Below are positions 3,274 through 64,000 of a DNA stretch of 64,000 nucleotides, one piece after another. This DNA comes from Escherichia phage vB_EcoM_SP13. The position numbers were made by a program, and so were the translations under genes. The stretch lies in sequence record OP352608; one strand, given 5' to 3'. Under the pieces are notes generated by a model. The model did not search any database. It was not told where the DNA came from and saw nothing but the letters and a program-made list of their open reading frames with translations. Numbering within the stretch: the stretch's first letter is position 1; each line of letters begins with the position of its first letter.

Positions 3274-5649
3274 ATGAAAATTCTTGGCATAAAACTCTGG
3301 GAGAAGACGCGACCAGAAGCCGAACCAGCGGAGATGCCGCCAGGCGACCCATTGGCACCGTTTGAACGCCTTGAAAGGCGCGGCAGCGGTCAACGCTGGG
3401 AAAAGACTGAAAGCAATCGACCGACCTTTAAAACGGTTGATGACTTCCCTTTATATGAGCCTGATATTAACGGGGACGGTGTTGCAATCATCAAAGGTCG
3501 CTCAGTAGATTCAGCAACCGTATCCAAAAAAGTTATGGATAATGCCTTAAAGAACATCAGTTCAGAAGGGCAGGTGAATCCATACACAGTGCCTATTCAG
3601 TTGCAAAACTGGTACTTATCGCAATCATTTATCGGATATCAAGCTTGCGCCATCATCGCGCAGCACTGGCTAGTGAACAAGGCTTGTTCCATGGTAGGCC
3701 GCGATGCGGTCCGTAAAGGCTGGGAAGTCAAATCCAGTTCTGAGTCGGAATTGTCAGTACAGGCCAGCGAACGCTTAAAGCAAATTGATAAAGAATTTAA
3801 CATCAAAGAGCACTTAGTTGAAGCCGAACGATTCAAGAATATTTTTGGCATCCGCGTCATCATATTTGATGTGCGCAGTGATGACCCAGAATATTATAGC
3901 AAACCTTTTAACATCGATGGTGTGACAAAAGGGTCTTATAAGGGAATCATTCAGGTTGACCCTTATTGGATGATGCCATTCTTGACGTCTGAAAACACTG
4001 CAGACCCTGCGTCACAGCATTTCTATGATCCAGAATACTGGGTGATCAGCGGACAGCGTTATCATCGCAGCCACCTAATCATCTTGCGCAACGATGAGCC
4101 AGCTGATATTCTCAAGCCGACTTATATCTACGGCGGCATTCCTCTGACTCAGCAGATTTATGAACGTATCTATGCCGCTGAACGTACCGCTAACGAAGCG
4201 CCATTGCTGGCGATGTCTAAGCGTACAACCACGCTTCGGACCGACGTTGACAAGGCGATTGCCAATGAGCGGTCGTTTGCCGAACGTCTGATGATGTGGA
4301 TTAAGTACCGCGACAACTATGCAGTCAAAGTGCTTGGTCAGAAAGAAGAGATGGACCAGTTCGACATCAACTTGTCAGACTTCGACAGCATCATCATGAA
4401 CCAGTACCAGCTGGTGGCCGCAATCGCAAAAGTTCCGTCGACAAAACTGTTAGGGACGTCACCTAAAGGCTTTAACGCCACTGGTGAGTTCGAAATGGTC
4501 AGCTATCACGAAGAATTGGAGACTTGTCAACAGCACGATTTGACGAAGATTCTTGACCGCCACTATAAAATCCTTTTGAAGTCTGAAGGCGTGGAAGTCG
4601 ACGTTAAAGTGGCATGGGAGCCAGTTGGTTCACTTACTGCTACTCAGCTTGCAGAGATTAACGACAAACGAGCGAATACTGGCAAGACTCTCATTGATGC
4701 TGGCGTAATCTCCCCTGATGAAGAGCGCGACCGCATCAAGGACGACAAAAACAGCGGCTACAACCGTTTGCCGGAAGATGCAGCAGAAGAAACCCCAGGG
4801 ATGTCTCCAGAGAATATGGCACTGCTTGGCAAGTCTGCTGGTGAAGTTCTGCAAGGCAAGGCCGATATTGAACAGGCCAAAGCTGATGTTGTCAAGATGG
4901 GCGGCCAGTTCTATAGCGAGACTGGTATTATGCCGGAAGGTGCCGCGCGTGGTGAGTTGGCGGAAAACCCTGACAGGGCACCAGTTGAGATTAACATGGA
5001 TGATACCGATGACGAATCAAGCCATCACGTTGATGTCCTAACGCAACTGAAAGAAGGTCTGGAGGGTATTGCTGACTATTACCTTAAAGAAGGTCAGGAC
5101 GTGGATTTTGACCCTCAAAAAGATGCAAGGTCGGTGCAACCGTCTACGCTTCCAAGCGTAAAAGGAAATGTCGTGAACTTGCGACACAATGTAGGGAAGA
5201 TGGATGCTGCATCGCTGCCTAAGATGAAGTTGCACGGGATGATTCTTGGTATTGAGAATCCTCGCAACAGCATTCGCAGGGGTAACAGCCTTGATGGTGA
5301 ATGGGCAGTTAAGATGCCGCACCATTACGGATTTATCAAAGGCACCAAGGGCGCTGATGGTGATGAAGTCGACTGCTTTGTTGGACCAAACATGAAGTCG
5401 CCTAAAGTATTCATCATTAACCAAAATGATAATTATTCTGGCGAATTTGATGAACACAAGTGTATGCTTGGATTTGATTCAGCAGAAGAAGCGAAAGAAG
5501 CTTATCAGGCGTCATTTGGTAACGGTTGGAACGGATTTGACTCAATCCACGAATTGGATGTAAACTCATTCAAGGAGTGGTTGAAGGGTGATTGCTCTCA
5601 AGCATATGGAGCACTCAACAATCCTACTAATTCACCGAAGCAAGGTTGA
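3274..5649 (+). CDS. portal protein (putative) with C-terminal inorganic-pyrophosphatase-like domain
   Basis: Large ORF directly after terL; AGGTGG RBS 8 nt before ATG 3274; C-terminus carries YGFIKGTKGADGDEVDC, which fits the family I PPase signature D-[SGDN]-D-[PE]-[LIVMF]-D-[LIVMGAC]. Confidence 0.55.
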   Translation: MKILGIKLWEKTRPEAEPAEMPPGDPLAPFERLERRGSGQRWEKTESNRPTFKTVDDFPLYEPDINGDGVAIIKGRSVDSATVSKKVMDNALKNISSEGQVNPYTVPIQLQNWYLSQSFIGYQACAIIAQHWLVNKACSMVGRDAVRKGWEVKSSSESELSVQASERLKQIDKEFNIKEHLVEAERFKNIFGIRVIIFDVRSDDPEYYSKPFNIDGVTKGSYKGIIQVDPYWMMPFLTSENTADPASQHFYDPEYWVISGQRYHRSHLIILRNDEPADILKPTYIYGGIPLTQQIYERIYAAERTANEAPLLAMSKRTTTLRTDVDKAIANERSFAERLMMWIKYRDNYAVKVLGQKEEMDQFDINLSDFDSIIMNQYQLVAAIAKVPSTKLLGTSPKGFNATGEFEMVSYHEELETCQQHDLTKILDRHYKILLKSEGVEVDVKVAWEPVGSLTATQLAEINDKRANTGKTLIDAGVISPDEERDRIKDDKNSGYNRLPEDAAEETPGMSPENMALLGKSAGEVLQGKADIEQAKADVVKMGGQFYSETGIMPEGAARGELAENPDRAPVEINMDDTDDESSHHVDVLTQLKEGLEGIADYYLKEGQDVDFDPQKDARSVQPSTLPSVKGNVVNLRHNVGKMDAASLPKMKLHGMILGIENPRNSIRRGNSLDGEWAVKMPHHYGFIKGTKGADGDEVDCFVGPNMKSPKVFIINQNDNYSGEFDEHKCMLGFDSAEEAKEAYQASFGNGWNGFDSIHELDVNSFKEWLKGDCSQAYGALNNPTNSPKQG

Positions 5650-5650
5650 T

Positions 5651-6502
5651 ATGGCTTTTAAAGCTTCGAAAAAACGTGAACGCCGCTCACCCGATAGAAT
5701 CGGGCGCGGCAGTCCGATAATCCCATCCAACGCAATCGCGATGGCCTATCGTCGTGAGATGAAAGGTCTTTGCTATGCGATGATTGACGACTATCAAGAA
5801 GGAATTGCTGAGTGGCTTGAAAAGAAGCAGGTGAAAAAATTCTTTGCGCAAGACTCTGCTGATTCAACTTTTCAAACCTTGATGAAGCGACTGCAACTGA
5901 AATGGGCAAAAGCTTTCGCCCGTGTCGGGTCAAAGATTGCCGCAGATTTCATCAAGTCAGTTGAAAAGGGTGCCACTTCTGCTACATTTGCAAGTCTTAA
6001 ATCTGCAGGAATAGAAGCGCCAAAAGCCACATATAATAAATTCGTTGAGAACACTCTTAAAACAAGCGAGACGTTCAACACGACTTTAGTGACTAAGGTT
6101 GGCGAGGATATTCACAACAGGGTGTACGAAGCGGTGATGCTTTCGCTGACTTCGCCAGACCCAGCGCAACAAGGCACGTCCGGTATTCAGGCGGCATTAA
6201 GGAATGTAAAACACTTCTCTGCAAAGCGCGTAGACCTTATTGCAAAAGACCAAACGAGCAAACTTTATTGCGTATTAAGTGATGAAAGGATGCGACAGAA
6301 TGGAGTCGAGGAATTTGAGTGGGCGCATTCAGGAGCAGGCAAAGAGCCGCGAATATCGCATGAGCATGTCGATGGAATGAGATTCAAGCTTGATGACAAA
6401 CGCTTATGGGAAGTAGGTGGAGAACTTAAGTTCAAAAAGGGTGACATCGGTCCTCCTGGATGGGCGATACACTGCAAGTGCAGGAAAATACCAATTATCT
6501 GA
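5651..6502 (+). CDS. head morphogenesis protein (MuF/SPP1 gp7-like, putative)
   Basis: Position immediately after portal, size about 280 aa; assignment mainly by synteny. Confidence 0.45.
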   Translation: MAFKASKKRERRSPDRIGRGSPIIPSNAIAMAYRREMKGLCYAMIDDYQEGIAEWLEKKQVKKFFAQDSADSTFQTLMKRLQLKWAKAFARVGSKIAADFIKSVEKGATSATFASLKSAGIEAPKATYNKFVENTLKTSETFNTTLVTKVGEDIHNRVYEAVMLSLTSPDPAQQGTSGIQAALRNVKHFSAKRVDLIAKDQTSKLYCVLSDERMRQNGVEEFEWAHSGAGKEPRISHEHVDGMRFKLDDKRLWEVGGELKFKKGDIGPPGWAIHCKCRKIPII

Positions 6503-6509
6503 GGTCATT

Positions 6510-7430
6510 ATGACGATACCAATCAACACATTCCCTCTATCTGGACAAACTCCAGTCTTGCCTGCGGTGTATGCTAATGGCTTGGCAATTGTCTCAGAAT
6601 TCACTTCTGATAAAAACTTGATTGTTCCACTGAGCCCGCCGCTTTCATCAGGGTATAACTCAGTAGGCCAGTTCTTTATGATTGGCAATGATGGCGATTC
6701 GACCAGCAAGCCTAATCTGACATTGTCTGTACCTAAGATGAACATCACCGACGTTCAAACTGGCTTGACTGCATCAACAATCACCATTGCTTTTGGAGAA
6801 GCAGTGATTATAGGAATGGAGTCTGGAGGGTCCAAGAATGCTGTCGCCGTTAAGGTAGTCAAATCCAGCGACAACCAATACACTTTACCAGCTGCGACGG
6901 CTTCCGTTCTCGGCGGCGTCAAAATAGGAAGCGGAATAAGCGTCGCAGGTGACGGTACAATTAGCGTAACTCAATACTCATTGCCGATTGCGTCAGCATC
7001 TACTTTAGGCGGCGTAAAGGTCGGTACAACTCTATCAATTGATGGTTCCGGTGTGCTTAACGCAGCAGCAAGCACCGTCCAGAATGCCACGAACAGTGTT
7101 AGCAATCCTCCAACCACTTTGGTTAATCTGGCAACCTTAAACCTTCCTGCAGGAAAGTGGCTTGTGACGGCAAGCCAATTGACCGTTGCAACTGCAGGCA
7201 TTCAAGCGAATACCGGAATCACTGTAAAATTATCAACAAGCAATTCAGATATTACGGATGATGCATTTACCATGTCAGCGGGTATTCGGGCTTCAGGACG
7301 TTTTGGCGGTAACGTCCCAACAAAAATGATTACTCTTGCCGCGCCTGGTAATGTGTATCTAAACTATCAGTGCACCGATGCGTTAACATCTACCGTTTAC
7401 GGACAGATCACCGCAATTAAGCTGAACTAA
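6510..7430 (+). CDS. structural protein with tandem fibre-like repeats
   Basis: GAGGT RBS; tandem repeat LPAATASVLGGVKIGSGISVAGDGTISV / LPIASASTLGGVKVGTTLSIDGSGVLN resembling phage tail-fibre repeats. Confidence 0.45.
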   Translation: MTIPINTFPLSGQTPVLPAVYANGLAIVSEFTSDKNLIVPLSPPLSSGYNSVGQFFMIGNDGDSTSKPNLTLSVPKMNITDVQTGLTASTITIAFGEAVIIGMESGGSKNAVAVKVVKSSDNQYTLPAATASVLGGVKIGSGISVAGDGTISVTQYSLPIASASTLGGVKVGTTLSIDGSGVLNAAASTVQNATNSVSNPPTTLVNLATLNLPAGKWLVTASQLTVATAGIQANTGITVKLSTSNSDITDDAFTMSAGIRASGRFGGNVPTKMITLAAPGNVYLNYQCTDALTSTVYGQITAIKLN

Positions 7431-7440
7431 AGAGGAAGTT

Positions 7441-7578
7441 ATGCAAAAGATTATTCAGTCACGTTATGTTAAAGTGCGAAATATTAATTGCAACTCTTTG
7501 CTTTCTTGGAAATGGGCTGTTTATGACTCGATGTTGATTGGCGTTTTAGTGGCAGGAGTGCTATTTAATATTCACTGA
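7441..7578 (+). CDS. small hydrophobic protein (45 aa)
   Basis: AGAGGA RBS 5 nt before ATG; C-terminal hydrophobic stretch MLIGVLVAGVLF; below the ORF-track size cutoff. Confidence 0.3.
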   Translation: MQKIIQSRYVKVRNINCNSLLSWKWAVYDSMLIGVLVAGVLFNIH

Positions 7579-7619
7579 ATTCATCGGCAAAGGATTGCCG
7601 CGAGTTTTATACGTATAAT

Positions 7620-7890
7620 GACGTATCATCCGTATCAAGTAAGTTGTTGTTTTCAAAAGAATCTTACGGATGATACGGATGATACGCGTTGCCGCCGTAC
7701 TATATAGGAATTCAAATAAATTAATTTAAAATTATATATCTAATTTAATTTTATTTTTTTATAAACTCTTATATATATGAAAAGTATCCGTATCATCCGT
7801 ATCATCCGTAGCACACCAGTGATAGCGCGGCTTATACACCGATACGGATAAAAATACGCCTCATTTTATCCGTATCATCCGTATCACACT
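7620..7890. repeat. palindromic 9-bp repeat element A (ATCCGTATC / GATACGGAT units around an AT-rich core)
   Basis: Units at 7622-7636, 7665-7686 (inverted), 7786-7810 (three tandem copies), 7841-7850 (inverted), 7867-7886; AT-rich core 7700-7785. Confidence 0.8.
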
Positions 7891-7943: not shown

Positions 7944-7972
7944 TTGCCTAAGTTTTTTTCATTAGATATAAT
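7944..7972 (+). promoter_or_regulatory. sigma70-like promoter TTGCCT-N17-TATAAT
   Basis: -35 at 7944-7949, -10 at 7967-7972, followed by GAGGGTGG RBS and ATG 8002. Confidence 0.5.
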
Positions 7973-8001
7973 ACACAATACTTATTTGAGGGTGGATGCG
8001 A

Positions 8002-9417
8002 ATGCAAACGGCACGCGAAATTGACAAAAATGGATTCTTGACGATTATGGGTTGTCCGATTTCGTCATTTGGCATTTTTGATTATTCTGCTGGTCAAGTT
8101 GGTCTTGATGGTGATCCGAATCGCATCGTAAAAGTCTATCGCCCTGAGTCAGCGGTGAAAGACCCCGAAGCGATAGATTCATTCAAAAATATCCCTTTCA
8201 TCGACAATCACGAAATGCTTTCTGGATTTGAAGGTGATGAGGATAACACAGCACCCGAAGAGTATGGCGTTGATGGCGTTCTGACTGGCAATGTTTATTA
8301 TGACAAGCCATGGATGCGCGGCGACCTTAAAGTGTTTAGCCGTCGTCTGAAGAAGGCCATTGATTCTGGAAAGGTTGACTTGTCTTTGGGCTATGACTGT
8401 GAATTCATCATACAGTCTGGAGAGTTTGACGGGCAGCCGTATGAAGTGGTGCAGACAACTCTTCGCGGCAACCACATTGCTCTCGTGGACGTTGGTCGAG
8501 TACCAGGTGCACGGGTGCTGGATGGTCGTTGCTTTGACCATCTTTGTTTGACGACTGTAACACCATCCAACGAGGATTTAGACATGCCAAAACCGTTAAA
8601 AGGTAAAGCGCGTGATAATGCTGTTGAACAGCTGAAATCACTGATCCCTGCGCTCGAACAATTTCTGAACGAAGAGAGTACTGAAGCTGCTCATCAGGAC
8701 GAAGTTGAAGTGAAAGCAGAAGAGAAGGACTCAACCGAAAATCGTGAAGAAGTAATGGTTGATCCAGAAGTCAAGGCAGAAGCAGAAGAAACCCCAGAAG
8801 GTGAAGAGAAGTTTGAAGTTGAAACTGAATCTCACGCTGGCGGCGAACTTCCGCAATTGATCAGCCAAATCGAAGCACTTATTGCAAAACTGAAAGGTGG
8901 CGCGGTAGGTGATGAAGAAGAAGTTGAAGCCGAAGTCAAAGACGAAGAAGAAGTTGAAGTCAAGGCTGAAGATGTATCACCTTGCGACAAAGCTGAAGAT
9001 GTGGTTAGCGGCCTGCAAAACAGCAACGTAAAGGGGGCTTCGGTCGAAAAAGATGACAAACCGACAAAAGCGGCGAAAGCGTCGCCAGGTCCAGCAAAAG
9101 GGGAACACTCAATGGCATCTGATTCAGCAGTTGCTGCTTTCTACGCTGATTCTGCTCGTAAGAATAGCCTCTACCAGCGCCTGTCTAAAGTTGTTGGTGC
9201 CTTTGATCATGCAACTATGGACTCCAAGTCCGTAGCGAAATATGGCGCTAAAAAGTTAGGCTTGAAGTGCGTTGATGGTGCTGAGTTTGACGTGGTGGAT
9301 AATTATCTGCGCGGCGTTGAGCACGGTCAGAAACAGCGTGTAGTCGCAAAACAAAAGGCCGCTGCGGATTCTGCAGCAACTGACGAAGCATTTGAAGCTT
9401 GGTTGAAAGGGGAATAA
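8002..9417 (+). CDS. prohead protease / scaffold fusion protein (putative)
   Basis: N-terminal about 190 aa resemble phage prohead protease-like domains (RGNHIALVDVGR), followed by a long acidic E/K-rich coiled-coil region typical of scaffolds; lies before the capsid gene. Confidence 0.5.
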   Translation: MQTAREIDKNGFLTIMGCPISSFGIFDYSAGQVGLDGDPNRIVKVYRPESAVKDPEAIDSFKNIPFIDNHEMLSGFEGDEDNTAPEEYGVDGVLTGNVYYDKPWMRGDLKVFSRRLKKAIDSGKVDLSLGYDCEFIIQSGEFDGQPYEVVQTTLRGNHIALVDVGRVPGARVLDGRCFDHLCLTTVTPSNEDLDMPKPLKGKARDNAVEQLKSLIPALEQFLNEESTEAAHQDEVEVKAEEKDSTENREEVMVDPEVKAEAEETPEGEEKFEVETESHAGGELPQLISQIEALIAKLKGGAVGDEEEVEAEVKDEEEVEVKAEDVSPCDKAEDVVSGLQNSNVKGASVEKDDKPTKAAKASPGPAKGEHSMASDSAVAAFYADSARKNSLYQRLSKVVGAFDHATMDSKSVAKYGAKKLGLKCVDGAEFDVVDNYLRGVEHGQKQRVVAKQKAAADSAATDEAFEAWLKGE

Positions 9418-47292: not shown

Positions 47293-48375
47293 ATGGCTAG
47301 TTTAAGAGAAGAAGCAAAAATAATTGAAGAGTTTTTAACAGAACTCCAGAGAGGCATCCCAGAAGATGAGCGCGTCATGACGGTGTTTGCTCCTGAAGCA
47401 ACGGTGCAGACTGACGAGCGCGGAAAGAAGATTAACAGCAGCTTCTGGCCTAAGCCTTGGAAGTTGGGCAAGCCGCTCATGCAGCACCAAAACGGCTATG
47501 CTTGCATCAGTTCAATGCGTAAGTCTCCCAACCCAAAGACGGGTGAGATGCGATACTGGCGTACAGAGTCGGCCTTTGGTCACGGTATGGCGATGATGGT
47601 CGACGACATCGGTCACGGTAAAGGGTCCAAAGGCGATTTAGATTTGGAATTCTTTTTTGAGCGACTGAAGCCGACTGTCATCGTCGAGACTTCACCGAAC
47701 AACCACCAGCTTTGGTACTTCTTTAAAGAACCGATTGACCATCTTATTCAGTTCAAAGCGTTCCTTGGGTCTTTCGTTAACATGGTACTCAAGAAGGGCG
47801 GCGACAACACGATTAAAGACGTAACGCGCGTGGGCCGTGTTCCTGGGTGCATCAATAACAAGCGTGTGACTCACGACGGCCCCTATAAATATGTCGATGA
47901 GAACGGCGACCCGTTCCGCTGCCGACTTGTCCATGCAGACTACTCCTTGCGCTACACCATCGAAGACATTTGTCACGCATTTGGCTTTCACGTCGTCATG
48001 CCGCAAAAGCGTGAGATTCAAATTGACGTCGATGAATACAAGTATGATGCCGTTTGGTATAAAATAGCCCAGCAGATTCTGGCGCGCAACAAGATGGGTG
48101 AAGGGTCTGATGGCGACGTCATCGAGAATATGTCAGGCAAGTGCCGCATAATCTGTCCTTGGGGTGAAGAGCACACCAACGGCGACCCGTATGGCGCGTA
48201 CTTTCGCGGCCCTATCCCTGGTGCAGAACATGAATTTGTGTTCGGTTGCGCCCACGACTGTCACCGGAAAGGGGAAGGCAAGAAAGGTTGGACTGCTTTT
48301 GTTGAAGCAATCGTCATGCCTTATATTGAGAATCAACTTGACATGATAAATCGTCGTGCAGGTGGCATAAAATAG
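47293..48375 (+). CDS. DNA primase (archaeo-eukaryotic primase / Prim-Pol-like) with zinc-binding C-terminus
   Basis: hhhDD motif MAMMVDDIGHG, His motif region, C-terminal CPWGEEH ... CAHDCH cysteine/histidine cluster. Confidence 0.5.
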   Translation: MASLREEAKIIEEFLTELQRGIPEDERVMTVFAPEATVQTDERGKKINSSFWPKPWKLGKPLMQHQNGYACISSMRKSPNPKTGEMRYWRTESAFGHGMAMMVDDIGHGKGSKGDLDLEFFFERLKPTVIVETSPNNHQLWYFFKEPIDHLIQFKAFLGSFVNMVLKKGGDNTIKDVTRVGRVPGCINNKRVTHDGPYKYVDENGDPFRCRLVHADYSLRYTIEDICHAFGFHVVMPQKREIQIDVDEYKYDAVWYKIAQQILARNKMGEGSDGDVIENMSGKCRIICPWGEEHTNGDPYGAYFRGPIPGAEHEFVFGCAHDCHRKGEGKKGWTAFVEAIVMPYIENQLDMINRRAGGIK

Positions 48376-49684: not shown

Positions 49685-51355
49685 ATGTCAATTAATAATG
49701 ACAATCTTCCAGAGGATACAGGTGATGAATTTGGTGCAATCTTTGACGAAATTCAAGATGCAGGCGTTTCGGAAGAAATGCAGGCAGCAGAGCAGCAAGG
49801 CACCAGAGCTAAAATCAGCCTTCAACATAAAGCCGTTGAAAAAGATTCAGAGCGCATGGAATGCTACGGTGAAGAAGACTTGGTTGAAAGAGCACGCTTG
49901 CTCGCCTCACTTCAGGTAATCAAGTTCCCTCACTACAAGCCGACCAAAGATGACTTCGTTCTACAGGCAGACCGGACGAGTGACATGAACCGTTATGCGG
50001 TTTTCGACGCGTTGTTTGATAAGGGAAGTGGCGTTGTTCCATTCCCTCACAAAGATACTTTTCGTGGGCGCTTAGTCGACCATCGCGGCGAAACATTCAC
50101 CGACCGTACTTTGGAAGTCACAGAGATAGTTGCCGCTGTCGACGCAGCAGGATTGTCCAACCCAAACTCACGTCAGGTCGCTCAATCCTATAAGGAATGG
50201 GCCATGCGTTATCAGCGCGACGACCTGATGGACTTCTTCTACAAGAAGCTGCCTGAATGGGACGGTACTGCGCGCATCGAGAAATACCTTATCGAGCTAT
50301 TCCGACCGTTCGATACAGAGTTAAACCGACAAATCGGTGTGTATTTTTGGCTATCGCTCTACAACCGCCTGACCAACCCTGGCTGTCAAGCGCCAATTTC
50401 TATCGCGCTCATCGGCGGCCAGAACGCAGGGAAGAGTTATTTTAGCAAGCTGCTTTGCGAAGCTATTATGAACGACCGCCACGCAACACCGATTCCGTTG
50501 AACTTAGCCGCGCAAAACTTCAACCCGTTCTTGCGAGCTATTACGGGTCGCTCAATTATCGCGAACGTTGGCGAGATGACAGGCTTTAAAAAGGCCGACA
50601 TCGAAAACATGAAAGCATTCCTGACTAAGACGGAAGATGACCTGGACTTCAAATTTGAAGATACGCAGGTTAAACCACGCCAGTGGATTGCGATAATGGA
50701 CGGCAACGAATACGCAGGTATGCAGCGTGATGACACGGGCAACCGTCGTGTGTATCCTATCTTTGTTGGCCAACTCGCCGACAAGGACGGGCAACCGAAC
50801 TGGTCGAAAGACTTCCAAGCTGACCTTTCCACTTTGAAAGAAGACGTTTGGCAATTGATGGCTGAGTGCGCTGCTTGGATGGAGAAGCACGGCGAAGCAG
50901 GTTACAACGCGTTTGTTGGTGAAACATCTCGCATGCTCACTGAGTTTAGTAAGAACGAAATGGAACGTGCACGCGGCGTTATTCGTGATGAGATGGTTGA
51001 CAACGACCTTGTTGAAGTCGTCATTACCGCGCCTTATGACCGACATCACAGCGGACGCTGGCACATAACCAGTGGTGCTATTGCTATGGGATTCAGAGCG
51101 AAGTGCGGCAAGTCGCCTTTCTCTCGTACCCTTGCGCCGCACATGTCGAAGCTTGGTTTTGAGCCTGCAACCTATCGCAACCAGCGCGGTTACTTTACGC
51201 CGCTGATTAAGAATGAAGCAGGAGAATACATTTCTGATTTGATGACCATCTTAGCGTATCTTATCCGCGATGAGTCTGACCCTGAAGATATTGAATTCTT
51301 GAAGAAGGTTATTGAGCGTAAACGTTCTTTGGGAAGAGATAAGGATGAATTCTGA
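49685..51355 (+). CDS. VirE/P4-type primase-helicase family NTPase
   Basis: Walker A IGGQNAGKSYF and downstream NTPase motifs in C-terminal half; 556 aa. Confidence 0.5.
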   Translation: MSINNDNLPEDTGDEFGAIFDEIQDAGVSEEMQAAEQQGTRAKISLQHKAVEKDSERMECYGEEDLVERARLLASLQVIKFPHYKPTKDDFVLQADRTSDMNRYAVFDALFDKGSGVVPFPHKDTFRGRLVDHRGETFTDRTLEVTEIVAAVDAAGLSNPNSRQVAQSYKEWAMRYQRDDLMDFFYKKLPEWDGTARIEKYLIELFRPFDTELNRQIGVYFWLSLYNRLTNPGCQAPISIALIGGQNAGKSYFSKLLCEAIMNDRHATPIPLNLAAQNFNPFLRAITGRSIIANVGEMTGFKKADIENMKAFLTKTEDDLDFKFEDTQVKPRQWIAIMDGNEYAGMQRDDTGNRRVYPIFVGQLADKDGQPNWSKDFQADLSTLKEDVWQLMAECAAWMEKHGEAGYNAFVGETSRMLTEFSKNEMERARGVIRDEMVDNDLVEVVITAPYDRHHSGRWHITSGAIAMGFRAKCGKSPFSRTLAPHMSKLGFEPATYRNQRGYFTPLIKNEAGEYISDLMTILAYLIRDESDPEDIEFLKKVIERKRSLGRDKDEF

Positions 51356-59076: not shown

Positions 59077-59609
59077 TGGGTAACGATGCAGGATGGGGCA
59101 AGCCGCGATACTCAAAACTTGCCCACTACTTTGACGACGGCGAGCAAATCAGCTTGTGCGGTAAATTCAACAAAGGCAATACAGAGTTGACCGATGCTCA
59201 AGAAATGGAATCAAGTCTGACAATTGGTGATTGCTCTAAGTGCAGAAAGGCATTATATGAGTTATTGACTCTAAGGGGATTGAAAGCGGCAAAATCAAGG
59301 GATGAATGGGTCATCAACGTCTGTGAAGGGAATCCAGAATTGATGGATGAATTGCTGAAAACAGATGCCGTTAATGCCATTTTCAAAAGGCATTATAAAA
59401 CTTGTATGCGTTACAAGATGAATGATGATATTATTTTTATGGTATTATCTTATTCAAGGAGCACAATGGACGTCAAAAAGCTTCGACAATATCGCCACAA
59501 GGTCATGTGTGAATTGCGCCGTTTAGGAGTTATTGTGGATAATAATGTCATTAAAACGGAGTTAAAGAAGCGTGATAAAAGGAATGGTGACTGGAAGGTC
59601 AGCGGATAA
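59073..59609 (+). CDS. hypothetical Cys-rich protein
   Basis: 178-aa ORF with several Cys pairs (CGKF, CSKCRK). Confidence 0.4.
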   Translation: MMGNDAGWGKPRYSKLAHYFDDGEQISLCGKFNKGNTELTDAQEMESSLTIGDCSKCRKALYELLTLRGLKAAKSRDEWVINVCEGNPELMDELLKTDAVNAIFKRHYKTCMRYKMNDDIIFMVLSYSRSTMDVKKLRQYRHKVMCELRRLGVIVDNNVIKTELKKRDKRNGDWKVSG

Positions 59610-59612
59610 ATA

Positions 59613-59637
59613 AACACTGTTTACGTGTTTTGAAGAA
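59613..59637 (+). terminator. stem-loop after last early gene (AAACAC / GTGTTT)
   Basis: 6-bp inverted repeat followed by TT. Confidence 0.3.
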
Positions 59638-59869
59638 TGGAATGTGTGCAATGGGTCGCTTTATGCGGCCTTTTGTCGTTTGGGTCATGTTTTGCTATGG
59701 AATAATTATGAGGTTGTGTTTTATTTATTAATTGTGCGGAAATATTTAGAAATATATATAAACAGGATTGTTAATATTTTAATAGTTTATGGCTATTGGT
59801 CCGTGGTGTTTGTTAGATTCTATCTATGGATTGGATTTTCTTGGGTCGTGAAACGTGGTTTTGAACACA

Positions 59870-60240
59870 TTTGATACGCCTAAAATACGGTTAAAAATTA
59901 AGCGTATCATGGCTGCAGGCCGCGCCGTTCCTGGATTCCTCTTTTCCAAATTGGTACACCCTTACGTCATGATACGTCATGGTTTTTTATCCGTATCAGT
60001 GTACAACCCTTGCCGCGCCTGGCTTGTACATTAATCTTACGGATGATACGGATAAAACTGAGCATCGTTATATATAGAATTCGAAAAATTAATTAACTCC
60101 AATTTTAAAAACATTTATATTAATTTTTTTCATATCCTCATACTTATGTTAATTTATATATTTAACGTATCATCCGTAAGATATAAGTAAAAACAAAGAC
60201 TTGCGGCAATACGGATGATACGTCATGATACGCTTCAACC
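59870..60240. repeat. palindromic 9-bp repeat element B (homolog of element A)
   Basis: Units at 59965-59980, 59990-59998, 60038-60054 (inverted), 60167-60179, 60211-60234; AT-rich core 60065-60165 resembles 7700-7785. Confidence 0.8.
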
Positions 60241-60461
60241 AGCCAGCAGCGGCTAAGTCGTTGATTTGCATAACAAGCGGCAAAAGGGATGGATTTCTTT
60301 TATACGTATCAAACAGTACACCACGCACCACGGTCCGTTATCCATTCAGCAATATGATTTGTGTACGTTTATAGCCATAATGAACATCAATCTGCACTTG
60401 AATATAATGTCCATCCATTGTATAATTCACACTATTAATTTGCACTATGGGATTTTGCACT

Positions 60462-60935
60462 ATGAGTCAAGATTATGTAGCGATGCCTGAAGACTTTGAA
60501 GACCCGCGATTCGCAGAGCACAATCAGGCTTTATTCGATGAGTTCATTGACCTTGTTATTCAGGGTCATGACATGCGCGCAGCTTTTGCACTAGTATTTG
60601 GAATGGAAGTTGCAACGGATAACTACACTGGCCAGCGAATCCTTTGCACGCAACGCAATCCATACTACAAGATGCGCTTCAAAAAGCGTATGGAAGAGAT
60701 GCCACTCAAGGATTTGTGGAGCGTAAAAGGTGCAATTCACAATTTGGTTAAGCTTGTTCGTGATCCAGAAGTCGCGGCGTCAGCCAAGCTTAATGCTATT
60801 CGTGAACTGAATATCATCTACGGCATCACGATGATTGATGAAAACGGCAATAGTAAAATGGGCCGTTCCATGGACGATTTCTACAAGGATTTTGGAGAGG
60901 CGGCCAAAGAAGGTGAGCAATTCTCCCGCCACTAG
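60462..60935 (+). CDS. terminase small subunit-like protein (tentative)
   Basis: 157 aa; C-terminal AKLNAIRELNIIYG region resembles small-terminase/DNA-binding folds; motif copies overlap its start codon; far from terL in this window. Confidence 0.3.
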   Translation: MSQDYVAMPEDFEDPRFAEHNQALFDEFIDLVIQGHDMRAAFALVFGMEVATDNYTGQRILCTQRNPYYKMRFKKRMEEMPLKDLWSVKGAIHNLVKLVRDPEVAASAKLNAIRELNIIYGITMIDENGNSKMGRSMDDFYKDFGEAAKEGEQFSRH

Positions 60936-60954
60936 CCAATTTGCACTATAAAAC

Positions 60955-60988
60955 GGCCCTAGAACACATTTTCTCCAATTCTAGGGCC
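60955..60988 (+). terminator. stem-loop (GGCCCTAGAA / TTCTAGGGCC)
   Basis: 10-bp perfect inverted repeat with 14-nt loop just after the 60935 stop; no U-tract. Confidence 0.35.
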
Positions 60989-61049
60989 ATCGGTAATACG
61001 ACGGGGAAGGTTACAAACATAAACGCGTTAGAAAGTGTATTATTATAAG

Positions 61050-61313
61050 TCATCTTTTAGTCACCTTACGTAACAATTTACGACCTTCAACCGTCCAATC
61101 GAACGACTCCACCAGCAGATTCGCACTATAACCTAAGACGATGCGTCCCTTCTCGTTATCGACCCGCCAACAAGTCTCGAATAGCATTCGATTTGCACTA
61201 TTAACTATTGCCGCAACTCGCGTAGGATAAGCGCAATTTGAACTATGGTCGTAAAGGGATAAGGTGCGACCACTTCCGATGGACAACGTAGCGATGAGAA
61301 TGAGCGTATTCAT
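61050..61313 (-). CDS. hypothetical protein
   Basis: 87-aa ORF; motif copies fall inside it. Confidence 0.3.
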   Translation of the reverse strand: MNTLILIATLSIGSGRTLSLYDHSSNCAYPTRVAAIVNSANRMLFETCWRVDNEKGRIVLGYSANLLVESFDWTVEGRKLLRKVTKR

Positions 61314-61363
61314 AAGCCACCAATTTGCACTATGAAAAGCGACCCCGAAGGGCCGCCATTCGA

Positions 61364-61990
61364 TTAGATAATCTGGAAGGTATAGGATTTGTTGCCGAAC
61401 TCAAAGTTCAAGCGCCCAGCTTCCTTAAGCTTCATGCGGAAGCGAATGTGCTTGCTATCCGGCAAGCCCAGCACGGCGAACGCTACGCGGACCGATTTGA
61501 ACTCGCCTACACCCTCGACCATAACGCCGTTACGGGTGAGACGCTTTTGCGCCACTTCCTTATTATCCCAACTTTTTGCAATACCTTCGCTATTCGAACG
61601 GCGATGGGAAGGAGTTCCATTTTGCACTACGCAATTTGCACTATCGTTTAGACCGCTCTTAACGAAGGCTTCATACTCTTCGTCGGTCATCGCGTCGAGT
61701 TCTTCCTGGGTCGGCTCGGCCTTTTTAACGACCGCACGCGCCTTATGCGTTTTTACATCGCTGGACACTTCCTCGCGCGACTTCGCTTCGGGGATGGGCG
61801 ATTCGTTGGACGGCTCATCGAGCGCGTTTAAGGACTCGATTAACGCGATTACGCGAGTCTCGGCGGTACGGCGGTCCGCAAATTTCTTAATCGGCTTCGA
61901 ACCGGAATTTGCATTATAAAATGCAACGAGGTCGGCGGTCTTAGTTGCGATAACGTCGCCGCTAGTCGAGAAACGATTTAAGCTAACCAT
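61364..61990 (-). CDS. hypothetical protein
   Basis: 208-aa ORF spanning the visible composition change. Confidence 0.4.
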   Translation of the reverse strand: MVSLNRFSTSGDVIATKTADLVAFYNANSGSKPIKKFADRRTAETRVIALIESLNALDEPSNESPIPEAKSREEVSSDVKTHKARAVVKKAEPTQEELDAMTDEEYEAFVKSGLNDSANCVVQNGTPSHRRSNSEGIAKSWDNKEVAQKRLTRNGVMVEGVGEFKSVRVAFAVLGLPDSKHIRFRMKLKEAGRLNFEFGNKSYTFQII

Positions 61991-62070
61991 AATGAACTCC
62001 TATTTGTTAGGGCGCTAGGCGCGAAAGAATTTTATTAAAGCGCCGCGCACGACGCTCTAAAAATCCTCTC

Positions 62071-62355
62071 TTACGCTTCGACGAGGGAGAAGGTCTCAAA
62101 TTCTTCTTCGCCCATAACGAGTAAGATGTTACCGATTTCGACCGCTTCGAAGAAGTATCCGTTAACGTTTACTTCGAAGGCTTCGCGGTCCGATTCCGGT
62201 AACGCCGCGTAAAGTTTAAAAGCCTCGGCGACCGTTACCCCACCCGCCTCGATGGTCTGGTCTACGTTCGCGGCGTAGACTTCGGATAAAATTTGTTTTA
62301 CGCCGTAGTTCTCGACGATAGCGTTACGGATGGAAGAAACGTTAAGAATAGCCAT
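62071..62355 (-). CDS. small acidic protein, paralog family member
   Basis: Similar to 62990-63280 product (MAILNVSSIRNAIVEN vs MITLSAIRAARVETSEN; VNVNGYFFEAVEIG vs VTINGFVYTITEIG); preceded on minus strand by conserved promoter-hairpin-RBS cassette. Confidence 0.5.
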   Translation of the reverse strand: MAILNVSSIRNAIVENYGVKQILSEVYAANVDQTIEAGGVTVAEAFKLYAALPESDREAFEVNVNGYFFEAVEIGNILLVMGEEEFETFSLVEA

Positions 62356-62423
62356 TTTAAACTCCTAGTTGGGAGAGGCGTTAACGACCTATTCGCTAAC
62401 TCATCCCGTCCCGATATGAGTAC

Positions 62424-62451
62424 ATTATAATATAGTGTAGAAAAAAGTAAA
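62424..62451 (-). promoter_or_regulatory. promoter TTTACT-N16-TATAAT (minus-strand copy of cassette)
   Basis: Minus -35 at 62446-62451 and -10 at 62424-62429; same cassette as 62894-62922. Confidence 0.5.
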
Positions 62452-62495
62452 GCACTTTTTCGATAAAAATGCGATAAATTATTTTATCTTTTTTC

Positions 62496-62523
62496 TTTAC
62501 TTCTTCGTACACTCGCGTATACT
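62496..62523 (+). promoter_or_regulatory. promoter TTTACT-N16-TATACT (cassette copy)
   Basis: -35 at 62496-62501, -10 at 62518-62523; followed by GGGAG RBS and ATG 62580. Confidence 0.5.
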
Positions 62524-62579
62524 TGTTTATATCGAGACGGGCGATGGCCCTTCCTTCTACTAGCATCGGGAGCTTTATT

Positions 62580-62882
62580 ATGACTACTTTAATCTCTTCC
62601 ATCCTTACTTACGACGAAGACCGTTTAACCGTTCGCTCTCTTATCGCCGCCGTTAACGCCGAACTAGAATCTAGCGCCATTAAGGTCCGCGCGGTTGCCT
62701 TCGTCGGTCTTTCCTTCGACGATATCAAGTACGCCGAACGTAGCGCCATCCGCTTCGCGAAGACCGACGACGAAGCCGTTACCCTTATCGAGACGGTTAC
62801 TCCGCGCGGCGAAACGTTAATTATCGTCGAGTATATCGACGTAGAAGGCGATAAGGCTTATAAATATTTTATCGCAAAATAA
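62580..62882 (+). CDS. hypothetical small protein
   Basis: GGGAG RBS 7 nt before ATG 62580. Confidence 0.45.
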   Translation: MTTLISSILTYDEDRLTVRSLIAAVNAELESSAIKVRAVAFVGLSFDDIKYAERSAIRFAKTDDEAVTLIETVTPRGETLIIVEYIDVEGDKAYKYFIAK

Positions 62883-62893
62883 CGAAAAAGTGC

Positions 62894-62922
62894 TTTACTT
62901 CTTAGTACACTAAGACTATAAT
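62894..62922 (+). promoter_or_regulatory. promoter TTTACT-N17-TATAAT followed by 5' UTR hairpin
   Basis: -35 at 62894-62899, -10 at 62917-62922; hairpin GGTAGCGA / TCGCTACC at 62945-62965; AGGAG RBS; ATG 62990. Confidence 0.55.
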
Positions 62923-62989
62923 GTTTTATATCGAGAGGGGATGAGGTAGCGAATAGGTCGCTACCCTCCCGACTAACTAGGAGAATATT

Positions 62990-63280
62990 ATGATCACTTT
63001 ATCCGCTATCCGTGCCGCTCGCGTCGAAACTTCCGAAAACTCTAACGTATTTGGCGAAACCTTAGAGAGCGTTTATCTCTCTAACGTTGACGCGATTATC
63101 GAGTCTATTTATGAGCCGATCAACTTCCTCGACCTTTACAAGTATCGCGATGAGGACATCGTGTCCTACCGCGTAACGATTAACGGCTTCGTTTATACGA
63201 TTACCGAAATCGGCGGCGAATATCTCGCTGTACCGCAACTCGGCGGCGAAGTAACTTACTTTAAAATCGTAAGCCTTTAA
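62990..63280 (+). CDS. small protein, paralog family member
   Basis: Paralog of 62071-62355 product; strong promoter and RBS. Confidence 0.5.
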   Translation: MITLSAIRAARVETSENSNVFGETLESVYLSNVDAIIESIYEPINFLDLYKYRDEDIVSYRVTINGFVYTITEIGGEYLAVPQLGGEVTYFKIVSL

Positions 63281-63291
63281 GGAGAAGAAAA

Positions 63292-63501
63292 ATGATTAAT
63301 ATGAATAACTCTCTTAACGCGCGCGCCCATCGCACCGCCGTCATCGATATGTTCCGTGAGCTTAAGGACTTATGCGATAATATGAACGCGATGTTATCCA
63401 TCGGCGGCTGGGGATACGAAGAAGAAGTTAAATATGCGGTTATGCGTCGCCGTCGCGATAACGTCCTTGGGCAAATTAAACGCGCCGGATTATTCCTTTA
63501 A
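63292..63501 (+). CDS. hypothetical small protein
   Basis: AAGGAGAAG RBS before ATG. Confidence 0.45.
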   Translation: MINMNNSLNARAHRTAVIDMFRELKDLCDNMNAMLSIGGWGYEEEVKYAVMRRRRDNVLGQIKRAGLFL

Positions 63502-63669
63502 TTATAATCAACCACCGTTACTAATAGGCCGCGCTTAGTCGCGGCTTTTCTTCGTCCCTATCTCGGTGCGCTCCTACGCGAAAACTCCTTTATCCTTCCC
63601 TTCGTCGTCGCATAATCTTCGTCGATATGCGCCTTAGTTCGCATAACAGGTATTACGTTAAATGGAGAA

Positions 63670-63940
63670 CATCGCGTAAGTCCTTGTTTTATATAGACAC
63701 CTATATCGGACCGTTAGGGCGGGTCGCGTAAGTCGTTGTTTTATAAAGGCGCAAAACTTTCCCTTCGTTCCGAACTAAAACGAGGAATATGCCGACCCTT
63801 CGTCCGAAAATAGTACGCATGCGAAATTACATGCATCTAGAATAATCCCCACAGATATTATCCTACACGCAATCATTCGCTTTCGAATCATTATGCTTCA
63901 TATTATTATGCGTCGAATCATTCGCTTTCGAATTGTAACG
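63670..63940. repeat. direct repeats in 3' non-coding region
   Basis: CGCGTAAGTC(C/G)TTGTTTTATA twice (about 63673 and 63725); AATCATTCGCTTTCGAAT twice (about 63870 and 63917). Confidence 0.6.
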
Positions 63941-64000
63941 CTGGAAACTGTAACGGCGATTGATTATTGCGTTCGTGTGGTTTTTATGGCATGGGTCTTT

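Follow-up and report, generated by a model that had tools for sequence, protein, structure and literature searches.

SaPI/PICI replicons of the pri-rep-ori type, which use a self-loading Rep helicase, were reportedly described by Ubeda in 2007 and 2012. In P4, ori and crr are bound by the alpha primase-helicase; the two sites are located 4.5 kb apart, and both are needed for one origin. The primary origin of T7 lies at 15% of the genome, and the origin-like phiOL and phiOR are placed beside the terminal repeat. These two elements are implicated in concatemer processing and repeat duplication. The pac site of P1 has hexamer clusters on both sides of the cut, and SPP1 shows the arrangement pacL-pacC-pacR. 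SaPI origins are found immediately 3' of rep, in the gene order pri-rep-ori (PMC9371898). Their 6-12 short iterons are split equally between the two sides of an AT-rich centre, with at least two per side and in opposite directions, and are bound by the winged helix of Rep (PMC9371898).

The window, i.e., the whole stretch of 64 kb that was analysed, was 100% identical to Escherichia phage F13 of the genus Wifcevirus. Identity to approximately 27 further Wifcevirus genomes was 95-99%. The end of the window (63995-64000) was the same as the deposited right end of the terminal repeat in phages Mansfield and WFH (GGGCATGGGTCTTT/TGGTGCG; here and below, the slash in such a sequence marks a DNA end). 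Therefore, the window is probably the last 64 kb of a record of approximately 72.45 kb with both repeat copies. Two related elements, copy A and copy B, were found in it. Their parts and surroundings are listed in Table 1.

Table 1. Positions of the parts of copy A and copy B and of the genes and signals around them in the window.
Feature	Position	Strand	Description
Fibre-like head gene, left of copy A	6417-7430	+	Head or tail fibre annotation in relatives
ORF of 45 codons, just upstream of copy A	7441-7578	+	Hydrophobic C-terminal half
Terminator-like hairpin and T-run, left of copy A	7585-7610	+	Hairpin at 7585-7600; ends upstream head-fibre operon
Copy A, outer-left repeat pair	7619-7637		CGTATC and ATCCGTATC; perfect 16-nt inverted repeat with 7671-7686
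Copy A, inner-left array	7663-7686		CTTACGGATGATACGGATGATACG; 9-bp period, GATACGGAT orientation
Copy A, core	7687-7785		99 bp; boxes TATATAGGAAT (7701-7711) and CTCTTATATAT (7766-7776)
Copy A, inner-right array	7786-7812		ATCCGTATC twice and ATCCGTAGC; orientation opposite to left array
Copy A, outer-right units	7841-7885		GATACGGAT (7841-7849), ATCCGTATC twice (7868-7885); 13-nt inverted repeat, 10-nt gap
Sigma-70-like promoter of protease/scaffold/capsid operon, outside copy A	7944-7972	+	TTGCCT-17-TATAAT; conserved
Head maturation protease gene, right of copy A	7996-9417	+	
RepB-type primase gene, upstream of helicase gene	47293-48375	+	pri ... rep order
VapE/D5-family helicase gene	49685-51355	+	Candidate initiator for the repeats; predicted C-terminal winged helix, residues ~436-504
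Copy B, left repeat units	59872-60053		59872, 59903, 59963-59981, 59989-59997; inner array CTTACGGATGATACGGAT (60036-60053)
Copy B, core	60054-60165		TATATAGAAT (60071-60080); conserved AATTAACTCC/ATTTT; virion left-end equivalent 60101/60102
Direct terminal repeat, right-hand copy	60102-64000		Right end, GGGCATGGGTCTTT/, is the last base of the window
Copy B, right repeat units	60166-60310		CGTATCATCCGTA (60166-60178), ATACGGATGATACGTCATGATACG (60209-60232), ATACGTATC (60302-60310)
Sigma-70-like promoter of small terminase gene	60381-60426		
Small terminase gene, immediately right of copy B	60447-60935	+	Homologue of PDB 7UXE, E 6e-34; TerS annotation in Mansfield

Copy A (7619-7885) was composed of eight exact or near-exact 9-bp units, ATCCGTATC or its complement GATACGGAT, in opposed arrays. 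Exact ATCCGTATC units on the + strand started at 7628, 7786, 7795, 7868, and 7877, with ATCCGTAGC at 7804, and the complement GATACGGAT started at 7672 and 7841. A perfect 22-nt inverted repeat was formed by 7665-7686 and 7789-7810, leaving 102 nt between the arms. The original prediction, made from the letters of the window, had described repeat units and their reverse complement around an AT-rich core of about 90 bp. The opposed arrays were confirmed, and the core measured 99 bp. It had also stated that the element is not a CRISPR array, and this was correct, as the 9-mers abut in both orientations without spacers.

The heptamer TGATACG/CGTATCA occurred 23 times in the 64 kb, of which eight were in copy A and nine in copy B. 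Against the background rate, the Poisson P of this enrichment was approximately 1e-17 for copy A, and likewise for copy B. The stretch 7697-7796 had a G+C content of 14% and showed the lowest duplex stability of any 100 bp in the 64 kb, 4.8 sd from the mean. The dG values were -99 for the copy A core and -102 for the copy B core, i.e., the first and second least stable 100 bp, against a 64-kb mean of -138 and an sd of 8.

Copy A was placed in a non-coding gap of 417 bp, and the genes on both sides were all on the + strand. Its predicted location between a fibre-repeat gene and a protease gene agreed with the annotations in relatives (6417-7430 and 7996-9417). In relatives, a hypothetical protein is annotated for the small ORF at 7441-7578; Kyle, E217, and Maja also have small ORFs at the equivalent place. 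Within Wifcevirus, the intergenic region of copy A was approximately 98-99% conserved, and the flanking genes were less so. The inner-left array was the same in five Wifceviruses, except for one base in Mansfield. The search for presence or absence in relatives gave no polymorphism among 28 Wifcevirus genomes, and both copies were at unchanged places in at least 28 independently sequenced genomes of the genus. The copy A element is real, conserved, and functionally important.

A second copy approximately 52 kb away had also been predicted. It was found at 59872-60310, where a gap of 840 bp precedes the small terminase gene, with its arrays in the same order as in copy A and an alignable core. 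Comparison of the window with itself gave these two copies only. The two cores showed 74% column identity, and the blastn identity was 69.7% over 152 nt. Since the similarity of the copies is only about 70% and at least 28 genomes, sequenced independently, contain the two of them, an assembly duplication, which the original prediction had raised against itself, was rejected.

The perfect 22-nt inverted repeats, the non-coding AT-rich core, and the presence of two copies per genome would also be expected of a MITE-like mobile element. However, the flanks of the inverted repeats differ (AATCT and GCACA), so no target-site duplication is present. The positions are fixed and orthologous in five genera although the arm sequences differ, and copy A is present in 28/28 Wifceviruses. 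No match to copy A was found among 5,426 E. coli genomes. For both a MITE-like nature of copy A and an assembly duplication, the probability is close to negligible, and the MITE-like alternative of the original prediction was dropped on the grounds of the missing target-site duplication, the fixed loci in five genera, and 0/5,426 E. coli genomes. In an IMG/VR scan for TACGGATGATACGG, nearly all hits were single chance hits, and several per contig were found in Wifcevirus contigs only.

The left end of virion DNA fell midway within the copy B core in Mansfield (by PhageTerm), WFC, WFH, MTx, and Kyle, where it is the start of a direct terminal repeat of 3.6-3.8 kb. The first base of the Mansfield left end aligned with position 60102 of the window, the middle of the core. 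The records of WFC and WFH included both repeat copies (3,784 and 3,701 bp) with an identical start base. In Ro157lw, the offset of the left end from the small terminase gene was as in WFC and WFH. The sequence left of 60033 was unrelated between two Wifcevirus subclades, and the left array and the strictly conserved AATTAACTCC/ATTTT were kept in both. Thus, the paired architecture of the original prediction was right, but the prediction had missed that the core of copy B holds the left end of virion DNA. Because this core is the site where the left end is made, the pair is tied to packaging and, probably, to replication.

The point where homology between the two Wifcevirus subclades ends (59610-60035) coincided exactly with the left repeat array of copy B. 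In the subclade of ECML-117 and WFH, the left flank of copy B (GCGTATAATGACGTA ... GATGATACGCGTCGCCGC) was similar to the left flank of copy A. The break at the array together with the copy-A-like flank suggests recombination or gene conversion between the copies. At the terminus (60095-60106), one additional A was found in the window/F13 type (AACTCCAATTTT), and WFC, WFH, Mansfield, FEC19, and ECML-117 had AACTCCATTTT.

An element with repeats and an AT core was absent where the terminal repeat ends on the right in Mansfield and WFH (GGGCATGGGTCTTT/). The right end of the repeat in the WFC record was 83 bp further on than in Mansfield and WFH. Just inside the right end (63870-63960), AATCATTCGCTTTCGAAT and TGTAACG were each found twice, and in Pantoea phage Kyle, AATCATT/AATGATT repeats were found ahead of the right end (L143 ~3450-3603). 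This right-end motif is common to genera, unlike the arm motifs of the elements, and may be a right-end recognition signal.

Pbunavirus genomes were reported to be circularly permuted and packaged by the headful mechanism (PMC12390725, PMC10913387). In the study of phage JG024, a putative packaging site was placed at 59,376 by PhageTerm, and this position mapped inside the copy B core of JG024. The records of PAP8, Ab28, and PB10 start at most 3 nt from the position equivalent to JG024 59,376. In the SCUT-S1 paper, a pac site was predicted in an AT-rich region, possibly a replication origin (PMC6521218). Only two AT-rich regions in Pbunavirus genomes fitted that description. In E217, whose genome has 55.6% G+C, the two elements were the only stretches below 30% G+C. 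The text of the ONT-cappable-seq paper on Pbunavirus 14-1 contained nothing on these regions. The gp77 ORFs of E217 and JG024 (MF490240 58488-59108; NC_017674 59205-59786), annotated as hypothetical proteins, overlie the AT-rich copy B and are probably not genes.

The two-site layout was found at the two equivalent loci in five genera, i.e., Wifcevirus, Myosmarvirus, Kylevirus, Pbunavirus, and Bcepfunavirus, and the repeat motif was genus-specific. Copy A was upstream of the protease gene in Serratia phage MTx (Myosmarvirus; motif ACTTTTCG), Pantoea phage Kyle (Kylevirus; GGTTATT and AATATCCG), Pseudomonas phage E217 (Pbunavirus; AAATTACCG), and Burkholderia phage Maja (Bcepfunavirus; ATAGTTAAC). 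The copy B core was the start of a 3,566-bp PhageTerm repeat in MTx and of a 3,603-bp repeat in Kyle. In E217, Maja, and the metagenomic relative L150 (motif TATCCGCAAGA), copy B was between the helicase and small terminase genes. The motif of Maja was confined to the two clusters within the 50 kb examined. Forms related to the copy A core boxes TATATAGGAAT and CTCTTATATAT were found in the cores of some other genera, and in several genera, boxes related to TATA(T/A)AGG were found left of the end position. In Xanthomonas phage FoX7 (motif GCGTTATTTAA), copy A was absent; the only element followed the helicase gene closely and was 3 kb away from that of the small terminase. Therefore, the internal copy is not indispensable.

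The iteron of L150, TTATCCGCA (6225-6690), was one position off the E. coli DnaA box TTATCCACA. The Wifcevirus sequence TTATCCGTA was two mismatches off this box, and the motif changes with genus. An ATCCG core was common to the enterobacterial lineages, a sign that one recognition specificity may have drifted gradually. A classical lambda or plasmid iteron origin, with direct repeats of 17-22 bp beside an AT-rich region and often DnaA boxes, was rejected; the units here are 9 bp, inverted, and on both sides of the core.

Judged from the sequence, there is about an even chance that copy A is an internal helicase-loading origin and that copy B is an origin-like site which also marks the packaging cut. 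The candidate initiator, the VapE/D5-family helicase, matched PDB 7PDS by sequence with an E value of 4e-11. Its AlphaFold model had a pLDDT of 85.9, and the best fold match of the model was again 7PDS ('PriRep1 with dsDNA'; E 2.6e-16, TM 0.61, approximately 480 columns). This structure is the SaPI1 Rep initiator bound to dsDNA, and the match spans almost the whole helicase chain. Residues 436-504 of the model showed the helix and strand order of a winged helix. Among 40 homologues, the C-terminal stretch had an identity of 26% versus 59% for the ATPase domain and was the most variable folded part.

Three features of a SaPI-type origin were found. At least two opposed iterons per side were present in copy A (7663-7686 against 7786-7812) and in copy B, the central region was unstable (7697-7796), and a Rep-type helicase with a predicted C-terminal winged helix was encoded in the genome (49685-51355). 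A position immediately 3' of rep is typical of these origins but not strictly defining. In the window, no copy has this position; copy A lies among head genes with no replication gene as neighbour, and 8.7 kb separate copy B from the helicase gene upstream of it. Among relatives, copy B was directly 3' of the helicase gene, as in SaPIs, in E217, JG024, MTx, Maja, and FoX7, and one gene off in L150. In Wifcevirus, Kyle, and L151, kilobases of inserted genes part copy B from the helicase gene but not from the small terminase gene. The element follows the helicase gene in FoX7 and the small terminase gene in Wifcevirus and Kyle, so adjacency is not fully discriminating.

The helicase, the element, and a small terminase homologue (E 4e-18) were also found as a trio in integrated Burkholderiales islands. 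Hence, the neighbourhood cannot separate the two candidate readers of the repeats, i.e., the helicase and the small terminase. The order in the Caballeronia island was integrase, VapE-type helicase, approximately 640 bp with opposed iteron arrays, small terminase homologue, and resolvase. Such satellite-like islands were seen in a Caballeronia genome and a related contig (L161 503-6662; L160 3001-5854), i.e., the module exists outside PB1-like phages.

Cumulative GC and AT skew tracked the transcription direction only and gave no origin signal at either copy. For the origin-like organisation that the original prediction had proposed, the iterons with the AT core, the SaPI Rep-like helicase, the layout in five genera, and the lowest stability all spoke in favour, and its binding and replication part stays predicted. 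In the mechanism proposed for the pair, the SaPI-Rep-like helicase would bind the repeats through its C-terminal winged helix, and one hexamer would be loaded per side so that the AT-rich core is opened. The phage also encodes a Pol III alpha-type polymerase beside the RepB-type primase and the helicase. The primase and this polymerase would then begin bidirectional synthesis. Copy A would serve as the internal origin, approximately 15.7 kb from the left end, and copy B, exactly at the left boundary of the 3.7-3.9 kb terminal repeat, as a site resembling an origin. Rightward synthesis from copy B could duplicate the terminal repeat before the terminase cuts the opened core.

The DNA end in copy B is the one property of the pair with an experimental basis, and it points to packaging rather than replication. 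Repeats on both sides of a cut are also the build of the P1 and SPP1 pac sites. Copy A may be read as a second, pac-like site of terminase assembly, with the small terminase or a partner binding both copies, so that copy B is cut and copy A is uncut or rarely cut. We consider this main rival reading possible but rather doubtful. Copy A could then be a synapsis partner which checks concatemer maturity. A synapsis role was proposed for the gp16 sites in genes 16 and 19 of T4. In Mansfield, WFC, WFH, MTx, and Kyle, the central position of the virion left end within the copy B core is in line with such a site, as are JG024 59,376 and the record starts of PAP8, Ab28, and PB10 in the Pbunavirus copy B core. 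Moreover, copy B is beside the small terminase gene in nearly all lineages, integrated islands included, and the copy A core of Kyle, ATAAATTGACTACAAAAAAATAG, is very similar to the copy B cut context, ATAAATTC/ACTTAAAAAAAATAC.

However, a DNA end in copy A was not found in any record or report, and 0/28 Wifcevirus records start there. The Wifcevirus copy A does not have the strictly conserved cut context AACTCC/ATTTT, in FoX7, 3 kb lie between the element and the small terminase gene, and one pac site is enough in known systems. Repeats are present on both sides of the core in both copies, but a mapped end was found only inside copy B, through relatives, and the small terminase gene next to copy B is 16 kb from copy A. 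The small terminase of E217 was suggested to form ring-ring higher oligomers, which would suit the pac-like reading, but it showed no appreciable DNA binding in vitro (review PMC9611059). This non-binding weakly favours the helicase as the reader of the repeats. In an alignment of nine small terminases, the DNA-binding regions varied, as did that of the helicase, so co-variation with the repeats is not discriminating. For a 68.5-kb metagenomic Wifcevirus contig (IMGVR_UViG_3300045988_152943), both ends fell within the left array of copy A and overlapped by 20 nt, ATCTTACGGATGATACGGAT. As this 20-mer is common to copies A and B, the contig end reflects an assembly that broke at a repeat, not the physical end of a DNA molecule.

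Transcriptional control regions, i.e., operator or enhancer arrays on which a phage regulator would act to control the promoters at 7944-7972 and 60381-60426, were considered for both elements and are improbable. Each copy is located between a terminator and a strong sigma-70-like late-gene promoter, and operators typically have multiple inverted short repeats. However, the arrays are approximately 270-440 bp long and centred 150-300 bp upstream of the promoters, and neither the small terminase promoter nor the protease promoter of FoX7 has the element upstream of it. Control of transcription explains neither the conservation of the core as a unit nor the DNA end in copy B. Outside the two elements, the window had no further core boxes, which rules out a general phage promoter. 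Ordinary promoter DNA without repeat conservation in relatives, which the original prediction had named as a refuting outcome, was not seen; the boxes are unique to the two elements, and the layout is conserved.

It is very improbable that copy A works as a structured RNA or a single-strand initiation hairpin instead of a duplex protein-binding site. The RepB-type primase of RSF1010 uses hairpin ssi sites, and the phage encodes a primase of this type. As single-stranded DNA, the + strand of copy A folded at -45.9 kcal/mol (z = -6.3 against shuffled sequences), but this fold is merely the pairing of the inverted arrays. The Rfam scan gave no family above threshold, only plant miRNA hairpin hits at chance level, and no promoter driving transcription across copy A was predicted. 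From genus to genus, the arm sequences are entirely different but the array layout is the same, which fits co-evolution with a protein at its site.

The origin-like reading can be extended to a dual origin-and-packaging module in PB1-like phages and some satellite-like islands. Its helicase-melted core would be both the place where replicative duplication of the 3.7-kb terminal repeat starts and the terminase substrate, and copy A would be the primary origin or a synapsis partner. In this extended form, the model is unlikely. If it is true, genome ends are made at an origin, which would give a concrete mechanism for long direct terminal repeats.

PB1-like phages, i.e., Pbunavirus, Wifcevirus, and their relatives, are among the phages most used for therapy and synthetic rebooting. 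In the literature searched, their origins were unmapped and the reports on their genome ends were conflicting. The end in copy B explains the start points of related phage records. An origin-like pair, one member of which has the packaging cut, provides defined cis-elements to keep intact in genome engineering. The pair is also a tractable system for studying the duplication and cutting of long direct terminal repeats, a long-open question. Genus-specific repeats together with a variable winged helix make a natural series on the evolution of initiator specificity.

Compared with known systems, the elements resemble MITEs in the terminal inverted repeats around a short non-coding AT-rich core. 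They differ from MITEs in having no target-site duplication, mobility, or host copies, and in their orthologous position across genera. The likeness to the pac sites of P1 and SPP1 applies to copy B only, where short repeats flank the terminase cut region and the small terminase gene is adjacent. In contrast, copy A is 16 kb from that gene, has no mapped end, and in Wifcevirus is missing the cut context, and the homologous small terminase of E217 did not bind DNA in vitro. With T7, the phage shares an internal origin (as proposed here) in the left quarter and AT-rich origin-like elements abutting the terminal repeat. The T7 elements are phage RNA polymerase promoters with a repeat of 160 bp, whereas those here are iterons, with a candidate initiator helicase and a repeat of 3.7 kb, and no sequence relationship exists between them. 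Two separated clusters of one short iteron and a D5/VapE-type helicase, whose role as reader is proposed here, are reminiscent of P4, but the P4 sites do not have the symmetric AT-core layout.

The likeness to SaPI/PICI origins covers the short iterons in two opposed sets around a central AT-rich region and the homologous helicase with a predicted C-terminal winged helix (7PDS as best match) and a primase gene upstream. In relatives, it also covers the position of the element immediately 3' of the helicase gene. The differences are the units of 9 bp instead of 5-6 bp, the two paralogous copies, with copy A far from the helicase gene, and the replicon itself, which is a virulent 68-kb myovirus and not a satellite. 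Here, binding is only predicted, and the core of the partner copy has the packaging cut, i.e., the terminal-repeat boundary. The element pair is best filed as an iteron and AT-core origin of the SaPI-Rep type, with the packaging cut and the boundary of the terminal repeat as an added role of its second member.
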